Assembly (NCBI GenBank): GCA_964016885.1
Contig: OZ024740.1
Span: 159,588,001 to 159,652,000 of the forward strand
Origin: Eledone cirrhosa
Lineage: Eukaryota
Length of the DNA: 64,000 nt
Reading direction: 5' to 3'
A program made the translations under genes and the position numbers. Each line of letters starts with the position of its first letter. Within the stretch, counting starts at the first letter, position 1. This document shows positions 1 through 47,622 of the stretch, one piece after another. The notes under the pieces were generated by a model, which had not been told where the DNA came from, made no database searches, and saw only the letters and a list, made by a program, of their open reading frames with translations.

Positions 1-1213
1 AAAGTTCTAGTTTGTAGGAAAGAAAACAAGGCGGCGGTCCCTTCTGGGAAATGGTCGTGCTCGGTGTGTAGGAAAGGCGTAGGTAGAAACTCCATTTTAT
101 GTCCTAAATGCAAAGTATGGGTGCATAAAAGATGTAGTGGGATCACAGGTAAGCTAACTAAGAACATAGATTTTACATGTGGCCGGTGTTCTGGTGCAAT
201 AAGTAGCAGCAAGTGCCCACAAAATACTAGCTCTTTCAATTGCGCAGAGGGTTCTATAGAAATAGTGGACAGCTTCCGTTACCTGGGCGATAAAATCAGC
301 AGTGGCGGAGGGTGCTCTGAAAGTACAGTAGCTAGAGTCAGAACTGGTTGGAAAAAGTTCAGAGAGCTTATACCACTATTAGCTGCTAAAGGGTTCTCCC
401 TAAAAATGAAAGGCAGGTTGTACGATGCCTGCATACGAACAGCAATGTTGCATGGCAGTGAGACCTGGGCATTGTGTGCAGAGGATATACGCAGACTAGA
501 GAGGAACGAAGCTTGCATGCTCCGCTGGATGTGTAACAGTAATATACGTGAACGGGAAAGCATAAACGAACTAAGGAAAAAATTAGAGATAAGAGGGATC
601 AGATGTTGTTTACTCGAGAGAAGGCTACGTTGGTATGGACACGTGATGCGCATGAAAGTCGATAGCTGTATAACAAAGTGCAGGGCAATAAAGATAGACG
701 GTAGCCACGGAATAGGCAGACCTAGAAAAACCTGGGACGAGCTGATAAACTCCGACCTCACACACTTACACCTCTCCAAGACAATGTCACTGGACCGAGA
801 TCTTTGGCGGTACTCAGTAACAGAGAAGACCCGCCTTGCCAGTAGGCATCTCTAACAAAATACACCCCGTCCCACCACCACCACCCCCACCCCATCCACA
901 CCACCCCGTTCTATGTAAAGTTATGTTGGTGCCGCGCCATCCAGCCCGAAACAAATGAGATCGTGTAGGTGTCACGACAAAAAAAACACACAGTCCACGC
1001 TGTAATGTGGCCGTGTAGGCAACACGGTAAAAACCTCCCAGACCCACACTGTAAATGTGGTTGGTGTTAGGAAGGGCATCCAACTGTAGAAAACCTGCCA
1101 GACAGTCCTATGCGAGCAAGACAATCACTCTTGCCTCAAGTGGGACTACCCCCGTCCAAACCCATGCAAGCGTGGAACACAGACGTTAAACGTTGATGAT
1201 GATGATGATGATG
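1..1213 (+). mobile_element. Young RTE-clade LINE, 3' part (RT C-terminus with PHD-like finger, 3' UTR, (GAT)n tail); runs off window start
   Basis: ORF 64-855 has FRYLGD, LHGSETW, RLRWYGHVMR, GRPRKTW motifs typical of RTE ORF ends; (GAT)n tail at ~1195-1213; near-identical to copies at 17.6k, 38.3k and 44.4k. Confidence 0.93.
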
Positions 1214-1555
1214 ATATACATATATATAGTATATATATATATATAGTATATATATATATGTTTATAAATATATACCATTCAATTATTGAGGTCATCATTT
1301 TAATAATATTTACCGGCACACAAATCTCATGGCTTGTGCATAGATTAAAATCCATTATTGTATTCTATGTATTTTCTTTTGTTTTGTTGTGGTGACTTCC
1401 CATCTGTCAGGGTAGTCTGTGGTTTTGTCTTATTTCAAGGATATTGGAAAGTCATAGTTTCTTTGTGTTGGTGCGTGAAATTTTTGGTTTATCATTAGCA
1501 TGATCTAAACTAATTTTTGTATATCTATTTTTATATATTTTTATATATATATATG

Positions 1556-1856
1556 GAGGCACATGGCTTGGTGGTTGGAGCATTGGCCTTGCAATCGAAG
1601 GGTTGTGGGTTCAATTCTCGGACCGGGTGATGTGTTGTTTCCTTGAGCAGGACACTTTATTTCATATTGCTCCAGTTTACTCAGCTGTAGAAATGAGATG
1701 ATAGGGACTGGGGTCCCTATCATCTCATTTCTGAGTAAACTGGAGCAATGTGAAATGGGGTGTCTTGCTCGGGGACGCAACACATCGCTCGGACTGAGAA
1801 TTGAACTCACAACCTTTTGTTTGCAAGGCTAATGCTCTAACCACTGGGCCATGTGC

Positions 1857-1859
<3 letters not shown>
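1556..1859. repeat. Fold-back inverted repeat made of two tail-to-tail halves of a tRNA-derived SINE
   Basis: Arms of ~150 bp centred on ATAGGGAC-tggg-GTCCCTAT (1701-1720); each arm matches SINE copies at 5291, 19470 and 41657; tRNA-like A/B-box head at the outer ends. Confidence 0.92.
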
Positions 1860-1891
<32 letters not shown>

Positions 1892-1972
1892 CTATATATA
1901 TATATATATATACTATATATATATATATATACTATGTATATACTATATATATATATATATATATATAATCGA

Positions 1973-2010
<38 letters not shown>

Positions 2011-2074
2011 TATATATATATATATATACTATATATACTATATATATATATACTATATATACAATTTTCTTTTT

Positions 2075-2293
2075 TTAATCGATCGACTTTCGTCAAATCG
2101 GACCGAGGAAACAATGTTTCCATTGGTCTTTCCAATTGCTAATACTATCTATCGGTCGCAACTCCAGGTAGAAGAAGCAACGTGAAATAAAGTGTCTTGC
2201 TCAAGGACATAACGCATCGCCTGGTCCAGGAATCGAACTCACAACCTTACGATTGCGAATCCAATTCTCTAACCACTCAGCCACACGCCTTCA
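2075..2293 (-). mobile_element. tRNA-derived SINE (related subfamily)
   Basis: Minus strand reads TGGCTGAGTGGTTAGAG...GTGAGTTCGATTCC (A and B boxes) followed by CCTTGAGCAAGACACTT. Confidence 0.8.
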
Positions 2294-2461
2294 CATATAC
2301 AATATATATATACTATATAAACTATATATATATACTATATATACTATATATACTATATATATATATACTATATATACTATATATATATATATATATATAT
2401 ACTATATATACAATATATATATATTTATATACTATATATACTATATATATATATATATATA

Positions 2462-2496
<35 letters not shown>

Positions 2497-2501
2497 ATAT
2501 A

Positions 2502-2537
<36 letters not shown>

Positions 2538-2922
2538 TATATATACTATATATATATATATACGATATATATATATATAATATATGTATATATACTATAT
2601 ATATACTATATATATATACTATATATATACTATATATATATATATATACTATATATATATATTATATATATATATATATACTATATATATATATATATAT
2701 ATACTATATATATATATATATAGTATATAATCTAATGGGCAGTATATATAATATATATATATCTATATATATATACTATATATAAATATATATATATATA
2801 TAAATATATATATATATAGTATATATGTATATATATATAAATACTATATTATATTTAGAGATTAGACTCATAGTCGTTTACAATTAATCAGCTCGAAGAA
2901 AGAGGCATTTCTGAGCAGTGAA

Positions 2923-3478
2923 ATACAAGTTATATATTAATATATATGATAAACACAAGACGTGTTTGTATTTTAACAGACAAGGTTGGCCAGCATGAAG
3001 TGAACTAGTTGAAGTGAATACAGTTTGTCTGTCTCGATATGGTCAATAGGGACAGGCTTATATTGGCAAAAGCCGTGATTCCAGGACAAATTTGAATTTC
3101 AAAATCCAGACCCGCTCCATGGATGAATTTGAGCTTCGAAACACAAATATGTTTCGCAACGATGGTACATGAATTGAAGAATAATGAGAATCAAAATGGA
3201 GTTGAAATAAAAAGTGAAATATCCAAATTCATGTACCATCGTTGCGAAACATATTTGGGTTTCGAAGTTCAAATTCATCTAGGGAGCGGGTTTGGATTTT
3301 GAAATTTGAATTTGTCCAGGAATCGCGGCTTTTGCCAATATAAGCTTGTCTTTGTTGACTATATCGAGACGGACAAGTTGTATTCACTTTAGTTGGTCTG
3401 TTTCATGCTGGCTAACTTTGTCTGTTACAATACAAACACGTTTTGTGTTTATCATATATATTAATATATAAGTTGTAT
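2923..3478. repeat. Long inverted repeat, 253 bp arms, 50 nt loop, no indels
   Basis: Position x pairs with 6401-x from 2923/3478 to 3175/3226; 30 mismatches counted by hand. Confidence 0.95.
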
Positions 3479-4240
3479 ATATAAATATATATATATAGTA
3501 TATATATATAAAAATATATATACTATGTATATATAAATATATATATATACTATATATTTATATACTATATATACAATATATATATATACTATATATACTA
3601 TATATATATACTATATATACTATATATACTATATATACTATATATATATATATACTATATATACTATATATATATATATATACTATATATACTATATATA
3701 TATACTATATATATATATATATATATACCATATATATATATACCATATATATATATACTATATATATATATATAGTATATATATATACTATATATACTAT
3801 ATATATATATACTATATATATATATATATATATATACCATATATACTATATATATATATATATATATATACTATATATATATACTATATATACTATATAT
3901 ATATATACTATATATATATATATACAATATATACTATATATACTATATATATATATATACAATATATATATATATATATAGTATATATGTATATATATAA
4001 ATATATATATATATATATAGTATATATGTATATATATAAATATATATATATATATAGTATATATGTATATATATAAATGTATATATATAGTATATATATA
4101 TAGTATATTTATATATAGTATATATGTATATATATAAATATATATATATATAGTATATATGTATAAATATAAATATATATATATATAGTATATATATATA
4201 TGTATAGTATATATATATAAATATAAATATATATATAAAT

Positions 4241-4275
<35 letters not shown>

Positions 4276-4294
4276 GTGTATATATATATATATA

Positions 4295-4371
<77 letters not shown>

Positions 4372-4393
4372 TATATACATATAGTGTATATAT

Positions 4394-4424
<31 letters not shown>

Positions 4425-4470
4425 GTGTATATATATATATATATATATAGTGTATATATATATATATATA

Positions 4471-4508
<38 letters not shown>

Positions 4509-4660
4509 TATATATATATATATATAGTATATATATATATATATATAGTATATATATATAGTTTATATATATATATATAGTATATATATATAGTATATAT
4601 ATATATAGTATATATATATATATAGTATATATATATATATAGTATATATGTATATATATA

Positions 4661-4771
<111 letters not shown>

Positions 4772-5290
4772 TATATATATATATATATATATATAGTATA
4801 TATATATAAAGTATATATATATATATATAGTATATATATATATATATAGTATATATATAGTATATATATATGTATAATATATATATATATAGTATATATA
4901 TATATAGTATATATATATATATAGTATATATATAGTATATGTATATATATAGTATATATATATATATAATATATATATATATAGTATATATATATATAGT
5001 ATATATATATATAGTATATATATAGTATATGTATATATATAGTATATAAATATATATAGTATATATATATATATCGTATATATATATGATATATATATAG
5101 TATATATATATATATATAGTATATCTATATAGTATATATATATATATATATAGTATATATATATAATATATATATATGTAGTATATATATATATATATAA
5201 ATATATATATATATAGTAGTATATATATATATATAGTATATATATATATATAGTATATATATATAGTATATATATATATATAAATAAATA

Positions 5291-5590
5291 TGTTGAGAGT
5301 TCTATTCTCAGACCGGGTGATGTGTTGTTTCCTTGACCAAGACACTTTATTTCACATTGCTCCAGTTTACTCAGCTGTAGAAATGAGATGATAGGGACTG
5401 GGGTCCATATCATTCCACTGCAAAGTGGTCGTGGAGGTGCCACGGCAAAAAAACACCCAGAACTCACTGTAAATGAGGTTGGTGTTAGGAAGGGCATCCA
5501 GCTGTAGAAATCAAGCCAAAATCAGTTCCCGTCCCACCCTTGCAAGCAGGGAAAAAACGGACGTAAAATGAAATGAAATGAAAATGAAAT
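5291..5590 (+). mobile_element. tRNA-derived SINE, 5'-truncated, (GAAAT)n tail
   Basis: Same body as copies at 19470 and 41657; AGGAAGGGCATCCAGCTGTAGAAA module; tail at 5567-5590. Confidence 0.85.
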
Positions 5591-5597
5591 ATATGTG

Positions 5598-5684
<87 letters not shown>

Positions 5685-5701
5685 ATATATATATGTATAT
5701 A

Positions 5702-5734
<33 letters not shown>

Positions 5735-5736
5735 AA

Positions 5737-5768
<32 letters not shown>

Positions 5769-5797
5769 GTGTATATATATATATGTATGTATGTATG

Positions 5798-5832
<35 letters not shown>

Positions 5833-5850
5833 AATTATATATATATATAT

Positions 5851-6507
5851 ATCATCATCATCATCATCATCAACGTTTAACGTCCGTGTTCCACGCTTGC
5901 ATGGGTTTGGACGGGGGTATTCCCACTTGAGGCAAGAGTGATTGTCTTGCTCGCATAGGACTGTCTGGCAGGTTTTCTACAGTTGGATGCCCTTCCTAAC
6001 ACCAACCACATTTACAGTGTGGGACTGGGAGGTTTTTACCGTGTTGCCTACACGGCCACATTACAGCGTGGACTGTGTGTTTTTTTGTCGTGACACCTAC
6101 ACGATCTCATTTGTTTCGGCCTGGATGTTGTGGCACCAACATAACTTTACATAGGAGGGGGTGGTGTGGATGGGGTGTGGGTGGTGGGACAGGGGTGTAA
6201 TTTGTTAGAGATGCCTACTGGCTGTAGTAGGTTTTACTATGTATTTAGGTAAGGCGGGTCTTCTCTATTACTGAGTACTGCCAAAGGTCTTGGTCTAGTG
6301 ACATTGTCTTGGTGAGGTGTAAGTGTGTGAGGTCGGAGTTTATCAGCTCATCCCAGATTTTTTCTGGGTCTGCCTATTCCGTGGCTACCGTCTATCGTTA
6401 TTGCCCTGCACTTTGTTATACAGCTATCGTCCTTCATGCGCATTACGTGACCATACCAACGTAGCCTTCTCTCGAGTAGACAACATCTGATCCCTCTTAT
6501 TTCTAAT
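5851..6507 (-). mobile_element. Young RTE LINE, short 5'-truncated copy
   Basis: Reverse complement of the 3' end of the element at 1-1213; (ATC)n tail; both ends abut TA microsatellite. Confidence 0.9.
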
Positions 6508-6748: not shown

Positions 6749-7442
6749 TATATAGAGATTACAATAATCAAAGTTCAGTTTAAATCATTTATTTGCTTAC
6801 AATTGTTTCCTCCAAACGGGGGTTTGGATTCTTCGGAGCAACTATTTAGTGATCTATAACATACTTGACCTCCTTTTCAACACAAGAGACATATAAAACA
6901 TATGCACATATTGATCCACAGTGGGATGACATTCATCAAAATGATATAGCATGGCAATTTACATATAAAGGTTAAAGGATAAAAATAAAGATAAAAATGA
7001 AAATAAAAATGAAGTGTTGGCAGTCTATGAAGATAAAGCAAGAGGAAAGTTTAGAATAGTCAGTGTATGAAACAATCTCACGTGTAGCATGCACGCGTGC
7101 ATGCTACACGCGAGATTGTTTCATACACTGACTATTCTAAACTTTCCTCTTGCTTTATCTTCATAGACTGCCAACACTTCATTTTTATTTTCATTTTTAT
7201 CTTTATTTTTATCCTTTAACCTTTATATGTAAATTGCCATGCTATATCATTTTGATGAATGTCATCCCACTGTGGATCAATATGTGCATATGTTTTATAT
7301 GTCTCTTGTGTTGAAAAGGAGGTCAAGTATGTTATAGATCACTAAATAGTTGCTCCGAAGAATCCAAACCCCCGTTTGGAGGAAACAATTGTAAGCAAAT
7401 AAATGATTTAAACTGAACTTTGATTATTGTAATCTCTATATA
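6749..7442. repeat. Near-perfect 694 bp palindrome with no spacer, probably Penelope-like-element-derived
   Basis: Centre GCACG|CGTGC at 7095/7096; one mismatch seen (7080 vs 7111); each arm holds a hammerhead-like motif. Confidence 0.9.
7350..7398 (+). ncRNA. Type I minimal hammerhead ribozyme-like motif (mirror copy at 6793-6841, minus strand)
   Basis: TTGCT-CCGAAGA-a-TCCAAAC-cccc-GTTTGGA-g-GAAA-CAATTG-TA-AGCAA: stems I and II, palindromic stem III ACAATTGT; U4C core variant. Confidence 0.65.
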
Positions 7443-36600: not shown

Positions 36601-37144
36601 TATCTTGTTAGCCAGCATCTGAGGAGGCCTCAATGTGGTCACTTCAGCTGTAAGAGATAACAACCAAATAATACTACAAACTCTTAAGAAAGGGAAGAAC
36701 ATACAGAAAATAACGGGATTATAGATACTGTATAGCAAAAAAGGATGTCTTTGATCATAAGGCTGCTCAATCAAGGTTGACTTGGGGATAAACAGCAATA
36801 CAAAAAGAGATAAATCAAGAGCAACAACAAGAACAACAACAGCATTAGAAGTAGTATTGGATGATGTGTAAATGAAAAGTTGTGGAGTGCCATGGTAACA
36901 TTAGATGATCCATAAAGCATTCCCAATATCATGTTCCTATCCTTCAGATACAATATATTGTAAAGGTTAACCAATATAGTATTGTATCAGCTTGTAGATG
37001 TTTGCAGTGGATGTTTGTGCATATGTGTGCCTCTCTCTCCATTTCTCACCCCACCTCCTCTCTCTTTCTCTCTCTCTCTCCCCTCTCTCTCTCCCTCCTC
37101 TCCTCACTCTCTCCCTCTCTTTTTATCTCTATATATAGGTTATA

Positions 37145-37200
<56 letters not shown>

Positions 37201-37225
37201 CATATATACATATATATATACATAT

Positions 37226-37302
<77 letters not shown>

Positions 37303-37381
37303 TATACATATATATACATATATATATATATACATGTATATACAGATGTGAGAAAAACCACAGACCCTCCATCTCAACTCA

Positions 37382-44392: not shown

Positions 44393-46239
44393 ATCATCAT
44401 CATCATCATCATCAACGTTTAACGTCCGTGTTCCACGCTTGCATGGGTTTGGACGGGGGTAGTCCCACTTGAGGCAAGAGTGATTGTCTTGCTCGCATAG
44501 GACTGTCTGGCAGGTTTTCTACAGTTGGATGCCCTTCCTAACACCAACCACATTTACAGTGTGGGTCTGGGAGGTTTTTACCGTGTTGCCTACACGGCCA
44601 CATTACAGCGTGGACTGTGTGTTTTTTTGTCGTGACACCTACACGATCTCATTTGTTTCGGCCTGGATGGCGCGGCACCAACATAACTTTACATAGAACG
44701 GGGTGGTGTGGATGGGGTGGGGGTGGTGGCGGGACGGGGTGTATTTTGTTAGAGATGCCTACTGGCAAGGCGGGTCTTCTCTGTTACTGAGTACCGCCAA
44801 AGGTCTCGGTCCAGTGACATTGTCTTGGAGAGGTGTAAGTGTGTGAGGTCGGAGTTTATCAGCTCATCCCATGTTTTTCTAGGTCTGCCTATTCCGTGGC
44901 TACCGTCTATCTTTATTGCCCTGCACTTTGTTATACAGCTATCGACTTTCATGCGCATCACGTGTCCATACCAACGCAGCCTTCTCTCGAGTAAACAACA
45001 TCTGATCCCTCTTATCTCTAATTTTTTCCTTAGTTCGTTTATGCTTTGCCGTTCACGTATATTACTGTTACACATCCAGCAGAGCATGCAAGCTTCGTTC
45101 CTCTCTAGTCTGCGTATATCCTCTGCACACAATGCCCAGGTCTCACTACCATGCAACATTGCTGTTCGTATGCAGGCATCGTACAACCTGCCTTTCATTT
45201 TTAGGGAGAACCCTTTAGCAGCTAATAGTGGTATAAGCTCTCTGAACTTTTTCCAACCAGTTCTGACTCTAGCTACAGTACTTTCAGAGCACCCTCCCCC
45301 ACTGCTGATTTTATCGCCCAGGTAACGGAAGCTGTCCACTATTTCTATAGAACCCTCTGCGCAATTGAAAGAGCTAGTATTTTGTGGGCACTTGCTGCTA
45401 CTTATTGCACCAGAACACCGGCCACATGTAAAGTCATGTTCTTAGTTAGCTTACCTGTGATCCCACTACATCTTTTATGCACCCATACTTTGCATTTAGG
45501 ACATAAAATGGAGTTTCTACCTACGCCTTTCCTACATACCGAGCACGACCATTTCCCAGAAGGGACCGCCGCCTTGTTTTCTTTCCTACAAACTAGAACT
45601 TTGGTCTTAGCCAGGTTAATTTTAAGTCCTTTTGACTCTAGGCCGTGCTTCCATGTTTGGAATTTCTTCTCTAGCTCGGCCATTGATTCCGCTATGAGTG
45701 TCAGGTCATCTGCGTATAGGAGTTCCCATGGGCAGCCTGTCTTGAACTCCTCTGTTATAGCCTGAAGGGCAATAATAAATAGTAGGGGGCTGAGAACAGA
45801 GCCCTGATGGACGCCAACTTTTACGCTAAACTCTTCACTATATTCGTTGTTAATTCTAACCTTGCTGACTGTTTCTTTATACATGGCTTGTATAGCCCTC
45901 ACAAGCCATTCGTCAACGCCTAGTTTTCTAAGAGCCCACCAGATAATGGAGCGGGGGACTCTGTCGAAGGCTTTCTCCAGGTCGACAAAAGCTAAGTAGA
46001 GGGGTTTACCTTTAGCTAGGTACTTCTCCTGTAGTTGTCGTACTATGAAAAGAGCGTCTGTGGTGCTTTTGCCTGACACAAACCCGAACTGCATTTCATC
46101 TAGGTCAATTCTCTCTCTGATTAGTTGCGCTATTACTTTTTCCGTGACCTTCATGACCTGGTCGATTAATTTAATGCCTCTATAGTTACTCCTATCTAGG
46201 GCGTCTCCTTTACCCTTATAACAGTTAACAATGATGCTG

Positions 46240-46241
<2 letters not shown>
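44393..46241 (-). mobile_element. Young RTE LINE, 5'-truncated
   Basis: Near-identical to 38316-40195; 5' end abuts a long (TA)n. Confidence 0.93.
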
Positions 46242-46299
<58 letters not shown>

Positions 46300-46394
46300 A
46301 TATGTATGTATATATGTATGTATATATGTATGTATATATGTATGTATATATATATGTATATATATATGTATATATGTATATATATATATATGTG

Positions 46395-46427
<33 letters not shown>

Positions 46428-46440
46428 GTATATATATATG

Positions 46441-46495
<55 letters not shown>

Positions 46496-46506
46496 GTATA
46501 TATATG

Positions 46507-46597
<91 letters not shown>

Positions 46598-47622
46598 TTA
46601 GAGAAAGATGACCAAAAAAAAAATTCAAATTAACACTTATTTTTAACATATTTTGATTGGTGCAGATCGGAATACAATTAACATTAAAAATTAACATTAA
46701 AAATGATTGCATTATCGATGTAAATATTCTGATAATGCATTAAATTATTTGCACAATGTCTTTGAGCATGATAAAGATTGTCAAAATTGATGTCTCCATT
46801 TTTAGTGACAAAAAATATCAGACAGTCGATAGAATAAACTGTAAAAATACATTTACTCATCTTTGAATAAGTTATGTTAGTAATTTAAGAAGTATGAAAT
46901 ATAAGTTTACCAATTCAGTGTTAGCAAATAGCAGAATGAATTTCCTAATACTGCCAAAAGAAGCATATGTGAAGCGAAATAATACTGGATACAGAGAGTG
47001 CCAATTAGATGTTTAACAGATTTATTTGAGAGAATAGACTCACAAACATGGAAGCCCTTAAGAATTATACAAGACAAGTCCATGTGCACATATATATCAA
47101 TAAACACAACACATGAAATTCCGGAAATGATAAAAACAGAACAATAATGTAATTGATCCATTCTATTCTCAGGTGCACACAATATTTCTGAACTGAACCA
47201 AATTATGTAAAGTGTTCATATTCACATTGATATACATTTATTAATATAAAAGATATGTGATACACTATATATGTACTGAGAAACGTTCACATTTGATGTG
47301 AATGTGCATACTATCAGACACACTATCTGTGTGTATATCATGACTCATACACTTTCCGGACATTTGTACATTATTCTATGGAATGTACCTGTGATGAGTT
47401 GTAGTGCACCTGAGCACTGTACACAATAATTTTCATTATATCATATAAATATTCTCACCTAAAAACAGAATAGTACGACAGAAAGATAAACATTAAAAAT
47501 TATAAATATATAAGGCTATAGATATATACAATGCCGACGCTACAGCAGATCCAAATAGAGATATAGATAATATTTCAGGGTTGAAACATCCTGATAAAAT
47601 AATTACTGTATGATTTACTATG

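Follow-up and report, generated by a model that had tools for sequence, protein, structure and literature searches.

One-stranded A-to-G clusters in fold-back repeats of the Eledone cirrhosa genome: probable DNA copies of ADAR-edited RNA

Introduction

Can adenosine-to-inosine edits made in an RNA pass into the germline DNA of an animal? This question is raised by a short stretch of the Eledone cirrhosa genome in which a SINE is folded back on itself and both arms carry clustered A-to-G changes on the same strand. An RNA-to-DNA route for editing has long been proposed; the examples that we found are retroviral isolates, and human L1 and Alu are negative. Here, we analyze the surrounding window, a 64,000-nt stretch (G000:C1:159,588,001-159,652,000) of a 3.0-Gb genome, for which an initial annotation had proposed that a plus-strand hairpin transcript was edited and then copied into DNA. 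The proposal is supported by the sequence context of the changes, a second hairpin, an unedited sister locus, the pairing of the changed segments, and 15 further loci. The case made at the outset was real but underestimated in scale, as it extends to a molecule of at least 1.9 kb and to a genome-wide class.

Results

The focal element (1555-1859) derives from a young SINE, about 335 nt long, whose 5' half is folded back tail-to-tail (Table 1), and it is predicted to fold as a single hairpin (z=-30). The SINE has 14,543 exact-motif matches in the genome and a tail segment that is 81% like a LINE 3' end; ARAGORN found no tRNA gene in it, and it contains motifs that, judged by eye against box consensus sequences, are A-box- and B-box-like. 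Junctions at which the hairpin of the SINE is extended were found at 55 loci, with both full heads present in the focal one alone, in a junction-motif search that missed the sister locus described below because of one change within the motif. Fold-backs are frequent in this genome, comprising these 55 SINE junctions plus two other loci (L162 and L179), whose one-sided mismatches proved to be microsatellite misalignments. Close pairs of the SINE core are arranged head-to-head about 485 times versus about 36 times tail-to-tail, a difference of more than tenfold. Separately, one solo SINE (L044, G000:C1:1804407) carries an inverted 4-nt loop in its internal hairpin, with similar loops recurring in a few among the first 100 matches, and tandem arrays with a 45-nt period derive from the SINE core (G000:C17:10636786-10645810 and C20:11751118-11751375).

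Table 1. Features of the window around the two fold-backs.
Feature	Position	Strand	Observations
LINE 3' part	1..1213	+	Near full-length LINE starting about 2.3 kb before the window; (TGA)n tail near 1193-1213; unedited
Flank	1214..1554	+	Common to a single other locus (sister); homology from directly after the LINE tail
Left arm	1555..1708	+	SINE 5' part; 6 A-to-G, G 3' of each; sister has A at 6/6
Apex	1693..1728		Short hairpin of the SINE itself (loop 1709-1712), prolonged into the fold-back; junction also in sister
Right arm	1713..1859	-	Inverted SINE head with 6-nt deletion; 9 A-to-G on the plus strand (7 firm), 6 other changes
(AT)n satellite	1860..5290		Motif type as in sister; interrupted at the older SINE and at the second fold-back
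Older-family SINE	2064..2290	-	4 A-to-G and 3 T-to-C, all common family states; no tight partner, hence an internal control
Second fold-back	2835..3478	+	Other repeat family; arms 2923-3175 and 3226-3478; 20 + 9 A-to-G, 2 T-to-C
5'-truncated tailed SINE	5292..5590	+	0 A-to-G
Inverted LINE 3' end	5852..6507	-	Partner at 582-1193; neither hyper-edited

Substitutions in the arms were scored relative to the consensus built from 30 solo copies, which had been picked regardless of A-to-G content. On the plus strand, the left arm (156 nt) has A-to-G at 1570, 1577, 1600, 1608, 1620, and 1650, with C-to-T at 1665 as its sole other change. The right arm (147 nt aligned) has A-to-G at 1757, 1758, 1759, 1771, 1772, 1777, 1787, 1846, and 1847, together with three C-to-T, one A-to-T, one T-to-A, and one A-to-C change and a deletion of 6 nt near 1731; some of these other changes are minor-subfamily states. 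All A-to-G positions listed in the initial annotation are correct against this consensus, and its remark that no T-to-C change was seen on the plus strand holds for both arms (0 T-to-C); the other substitutions, which it put at about 6, number 7. The claimed 14-15 A-to-G changes are present in full, at 15, but two of them are probably inherited variants: 1787 co-occurs with 1789 in 3 of the 29 solo copies closest to the right arm, and 1776/1777 resembles an older-subfamily state. Since 1787 and 1777 may thus be inherited subfamily states, 13 sites are firm. Within the inner 90 nt of this first hairpin (1666-1755), none of the 26 A's is changed.

The occurrence of 1787, and possibly 1777, in solo copies is what speaks for subfamily variation or chance as the source of the whole pattern, a reading that is ruled out for 13 of the 15 sites and to which we assign a negligible probability. 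Unselected copies show a background of 20 A-to-G changes in 3128 A's and 28 T-to-C changes in 2727 T's, given which the left arm would arise by chance with P=1.6e-7 and the right arm with P=1e-9 (5e-7 with 7 sites); the 15:0 polarity of the fold-back has P=6e-5. Moreover, the AAA-to-GGG motif of the right arm occurs once in the genome (one of three pattern matches), and the best solo match to this arm reaches 90% (40 scored of 2365 candidates), which together argue that the G's are no subfamily signature. The initial view that the G variants are not diagnostic of solo subfamilies therefore holds for the 13 sites, the motif being unique and the sister locus carrying A.

About 1 kb downstream lies the second fold-back, formed by an unrelated repeat family and scored against a family consensus built from 26 copies. 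Mismatches between its arms comprise 24 G.T versus 1 A.C, and four A-to-G changes fall outside the arms (2865, 2895, 3179, and 3201), three of which are common to family copies. Most of the G's in the second hairpin are missing from about 50 family matches, a further point against subfamily variation or chance, and L247 on C5, where this family forms an independent fold-back, has no A-to-G change in 622 nt. Taken together, the two hairpins have 44 A-to-G versus 2 T-to-C changes on the plus strand, and the finding of the same polarity in both arms of two unrelated hairpins (15:0 and 29:2) favors an RNA origin. The edited molecule therefore covered at least 1555-3478, that is, at least 1.9 kb. 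As the inverted LINE arms at 582-1193 and 5873-6507 would have paired and yet are not hyper-edited, the RNA likely ended upstream of 5852. The edited RNA probably had its 3' end region in the (AT)n satellite at 1860-5290; the SINE at 5292-5590 is a possible, though unproven, 3' terminus for the copied RNA. Further downstream, a palindrome at 6749-7442 (688 nt, 99.7%) has no G.T mismatch and is unedited.

The changes in the window tract depend on their neighboring bases: of 57 A's that follow G, 1 is changed, compared with 43 of the 264 other A's (p=0.002), and of 51 A's that precede G, 18 are changed (p=1e-5). This context agrees with the ADAR motif reported in PMC4365171, in which a 5' G is depleted and a 3' G enriched. 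Across 13 other loci introduced below, with anchor sites left out, the 5' G depletion recurs (36/274, p=1e-16), and the 3' G proportion (103/277, p=0.10) is not significant. The changes are also restricted to duplex as expected of ADAR, apart from the four that are not in the second hairpin's arms. At one locus (L304), the pairable segment has 16 of its 30 A's changed, whereas none of the 222 A's in the unpaired segment is; at two others (L188 and L281), editing is present in the two arms and spares the unpaired tail. In the window, the older SINE and the SINE at 5292, neither of which has a tight partner, and the LINE copies show no editing excess.

Mutagenesis of one DNA strand, whether by pol eta/iota, by adenine deamination in single-stranded DNA, or by ADAR acting on R-loop DNA, would offer another origin for polarized changes. 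Pol eta/iota-type synthesis is error-prone and yields A-to-G at WA, and the 5' T/A preference is shared by pol eta. ADAR has been reported to edit DNA in RNA:DNA hybrids on model substrates (PMC12925331). We nonetheless consider such mutagenesis very improbable, since it predicts neither the confinement to intramolecular complements seen at L304, nor the saturation of 81% of A's with no T-to-C change at L285 (see below), nor the near absence of other substitution types, nor the 3' G enrichment in the window.

To find relatives of the window tract, the genome was searched with patterns in which two or three G's were fixed at consensus A's (3, 3, 4, 5, 17, 6, and 1 matches), and a locus was counted if it had at least 6 A-to-G changes making up at least 60% of the changes on one strand. 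These anchor searches returned 15 passing loci besides the window, a number that is a lower bound (L188, L213, L215, L280, L281, L285, L286, L289, L294, L295, L297, L298, L300, L302, and L304). Thirteen of these, like the window itself, are on chromosome-scale contigs, and two are on the small unplaced contigs C403 and C919. The extreme case is L285, with 77 of 95 A's changed (81%) and no T-to-C, and L302 has 51 A-to-G changes in an antisense SINE. Pooling the window with 13 loci, two of them borderline (L288 and L292), gives 496 A-to-G, 19 T-to-C, and 20 G-to-A changes, so that A-to-G on one strand dominates the pool as it does the window tract; the 20 G-to-A changes set against 496 A-to-G show no APOBEC-type pattern on the element sense strand. 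Another 16 double-anchor matches failed the threshold and are left out of the count (L187, L189-L191, L214, L283, L287, L288, L290-L293, L296, L299, L301, and L303), L299 being borderline as well. Single-anchor searches had a low yield, with 1 of 4 matches in one, and in another, with 117 matches of which 30 loci were read, the focal locus alone was hypermutated.

Control copies were clean. None of 184 copies from 170 loci chosen independently of A-to-G content reaches the threshold for any substitution type, and hypermutation was seen in none of 35 other tail-to-tail matches and in none of the 16 head-to-head pairs examined of about 485. A one-strand A-to-G excess, for which the initial annotation had suggested scanning long inverted repeats, is found at 15 loci besides the window and in none of the 184 unselected copies. 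The edited class is rare, and its locus count is a lower bound. A LINE/SINE 3' tail is present in most sense-edited loci and missing in L302. Three edited copies (L215, L286, and L302) have no adjacent partner, as would be expected if 5' truncation had removed it.

Several other substitution patterns were seen in passing. Edited runs of A beside G have apparently expanded to long G homopolymers in L107 (815-900), L286 (770-800), and L302 (565-590). A truncated SINE tail in L107 has about 6 sense A-to-G changes and no nearby partner. A solo SINE (L190, G000:C4:37030346) has about 8 sense T-to-C changes, some of them older-subfamily states, which possibly represent weak antisense editing.

The G alleles could also be an artefact of assembly or sequencing, introduced by cDNA or RNA-seq reads in the consensus or by base-calling failure at hairpins. 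In public contigs and RAD reads, paralogs dominate at the focal SINE and no piece spans the element, so that the G alleles, swamped by paralogs, have no raw-read support there; the indexed word share of 0.58 is accounted for without any G-cluster word. In addition, the C403 and C919 loci lie on small unplaced contigs, and many of the A-to-G changes lengthen G runs. Against this, errors arising in double-stranded DNA are expected to be strand-symmetric; equal or better hairpins, including the tail-to-tail set, L247, and the palindrome, are clean; chromosome-scale contigs carry the window and all but two of the 15 other loci; and in public contigs under the same organism code, the focal flank stands apart from the sister and shows a second allele at 1460. 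An artefact is therefore improbable in our assessment, and the presence of the fold-back in two diverged loci argues that it is no amplification chimera.

What lies upstream bears on the source of the RNA. Pfam identifies RVT_1 (E=1e-30) and Exo_endo_phos_2 (E=1e-6) domains in the LINE at the start of the window, which by its resemblance to RTE elements may belong to that clade, and which differs from a second copy at 29 positions in 1741 nt, only 1 of these being A-to-G. This LINE is likely the source of read-through transcription and/or of the reverse transcriptase. In the near full-length young LINE of L115 (7594-10000) with window positions 1-905, the endonuclease region is divided between two frames near the start.

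The flank between the LINE tail and the fold-back has exactly one paralog over 1262-1513 (2 of 2 candidates examined), a sister locus at G000:C1:222.417 Mb, 63 Mb away, with 94% identity over this interval (15 of 252 sites differ). The sister has the equivalent SINE, the fold-back junction, the satellite type, and the C-to-T change at 1665, and it carries A at all 9 comparable sites (the 6 in the left arm plus 1757-1759). Its right arm is about 94 nt shorter, apparently through a microhomology deletion. Neither the older SINE nor the second fold-back is present in the sister within 10 kb. Thus, the sister establishes which state is ancestral, without being a clean parent. Derivation of the LINE plus flank from the sister by circular permutation was considered and rejected, as the two LINEs differ in their 5' ends. 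No target-site duplication can be called, the ends lying within (AT)n, and there is no LINE/SINE tail immediately 3' of the edited hairpins; a tailed SINE follows at 5292-5590.

A family of four copies provides a more direct comparison of edited and unedited DNA. One junction motif finds three copies, of which the one on C3 is unedited and the other two are on C13 and C403, and a C22 copy has its 3' part in common with them. In a shared 211-nt piece with 62 A's, A-to-G changes number 41 on C13, 32 on C22, 17 on C403, and 0 on C3, and a downstream unpaired element of 550 nt differs by 2-4 mismatches only between family copies. The copies vary in 5' extent, and upstream hairpins are edited in C403. 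Comparing C13 with C22, 13 edits are exclusive to the former and 4 to the latter. All 17 C403 edits fall within the C13 set, so these two copies need not be independent events; the nesting could reflect a hierarchy of sites or sequential rounds of editing. Since C13, C22, and C403 have a few non-editing differences from C3 in common, the C3 copy is a close relative and not a proven parent. The combination of an unedited copy with three differently edited relatives favors RNA copying.

Traces of editing may extend past the elements themselves. In the AT tracts that follow the tails of the edited copies, G exceeds C at 9 loci and C exceeds G at none, versus 13:13 among 89 controls (the L188 entry is void, its tail having been mis-located). 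The G-type tracts suggest that the RNAs extended beyond the element ends into self-pairing (AT)n, which would have been edited as well. In the focal satellite, the (AT)n motif counts tend toward G and are not decisive. Elsewhere in the window, G:C interruptions of (AT)n are 10:0 at 5580-5840, 0:9 at 37140-37350, and 16:0 at 46230-46610; these strand-polarized tracts are possibly editing relics. A repeat of about 600 nt that ends in G-type (AT)n lies 3' of several edited inserts (L305 1600-2000 with L311 1-150; also in L289, L301, L302, L309, and the sister region), and this repeat may drive their retrotransposition.

The G-type tracts (9:0 loci) can also be read as favoring an in-place overwrite, in which the locus would have been rewritten with its own edited transcript as template, either by RNA-templated repair or by gene conversion from cDNA, and the sister would stem from an earlier DNA duplication; the RNA step would be the same as under insertion at a new site. 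This reading would also accommodate a second fold-back that is edited yet absent from the sister, and the finding of no third, parent-like locus among 2 of 2 candidates. However, the partner-less copies L215, L286, and L302 fit retrotransposition better, as do the dispersed C3/C13/C22/C403 copies with their varied 5' extents. We regard overwriting as possible but rather unlikely.

Discussion

The fold-backs, their polarity, the ADAR-type context, the unedited sister, the restriction to duplex, the dispersal of copies, and the 15 loci are directly visible in the assembly. We hold an RNA origin of the edited tract to be highly probable and, more specifically, consider it very likely that the segment from 1555 to at least 3478 is a DNA copy of one long, ADAR-hyperedited, reverse-transcribed RNA. 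Given an RNA origin, the copy was probably inserted at a new site, as a retrocopy resembling a 3' transduction, with overwriting of the transcribed locus as the lesser possibility. Such a copy could have arisen from a read-through transcript, probably driven by the upstream LINE or a host promoter, that would have folded at both inverted repeats and been deaminated by ADAR from A to inosine within the hairpins. The LINE reverse transcriptase would have read inosine as G, primed within an (AT)n tract or from the tail of a SINE or LINE, and the resulting copy would have become fixed in the germline genome.

Deaminase footprints brought into DNA by reverse transcription are a kind of phenomenon that is already known. 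Edited avian retroviral isolates are of laboratory origin. Rous-associated virus, like avian leukosis virus, is described as ADAR-hyperedited in PMC12925331, which cites Hajjar and Linial 1995 and Felder 1994, and in these, as in our loci, A-to-G changes affect an inverted-repeat region of a reverse-transcribed element, with as many as roughly half of the A's changed in the viruses. Those cases are single viral isolates, whereas here host non-LTR repeats and their cargo are affected at many dispersed loci, and no LTR or viral genes are present. APOBEC editing of LTR retrotransposon DNA in vertebrates, seen as G-to-A on the sense strand (PMC4866542), likewise leaves strand-polarized deaminase footprints that are fixed in genomic retroelements and recognized by comparison with a consensus. 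Unlike those footprints, ours are A-to-G, occur on either element strand, and are tied to duplex structure; the screen in PMC4866542 filtered for G-to-A and not A-to-G changes and placed invertebrates at noise level.

At the RNA level, ultra-edited transcripts have reportedly been found in inverted repeats. Our loci share with the hyper-edited RNAs of PMC4365171 the clustering of A-to-G, the 5' G depletion, and the need for an inverted partner, and the window tract also shares the 3' G enrichment, and repeat-directed editing is described as ubiquitous in coleoids (PMC9068888). These are differences between RNA and DNA, whereas the pattern here lies within a DNA assembly. For human elements, two reports speak against such transfer, in that L1 RNA was found not to be edited by ADAR1 (PMC5224506) and no editing was seen over 52,039 bp of de novo Alu inserts (PMC3415434), which counts against an RNA origin. 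An RTE LINE is reported to be transcribed in octopus (PMC9115989).

Our loci can also be set beside ordinary LINE mobility. In LINE 3' transduction and retrocopying, a flank is moved behind the LINE tail and the cargo is normally unedited. Our copies likewise have a flank behind a LINE tail, varied 5' ends, and a common 3' part, but their cargo is edited. In full-text searches of largely open-access literature, we found no report of ADAR-hyperedited LINE or SINE copies, or their cargo, fixed in an animal genome.

On a broader view, it is tempting to hypothesize that ADAR is a recurrent germline mutagen in this lineage, with hyper-edited read-through RNAs being retrotransposed time and again and in some cases transcribed and edited anew (as the nested sets of 0, 17, 32, and 41 changes might indicate), (AT)n tracts turning into GT-rich microsatellites, and the copies building a datable fossil record of germline dsRNA and ADAR specificity; we put this forward tentatively, as somewhat less than an even prospect. 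The idea is testable genome-wide from assemblies alone, in terms of the rate and age of such copies, the ADAR context over time, and disabled daughter copies. In this regard, editing may disable daughter copies, as position 1570 lies in the A-box-like motif. Repeats rich in A-to-G changes and GT-rich microsatellites can also bias the dating of repeats and the calling of editing sites. If raw DNA confirms the G alleles, these loci would be direct evidence that A-to-I edits flow from RNA to DNA in an animal germline. RNA editing would then be a source of heritable mutation, and ADAR and a LINE would have to be active within the same germline cells.
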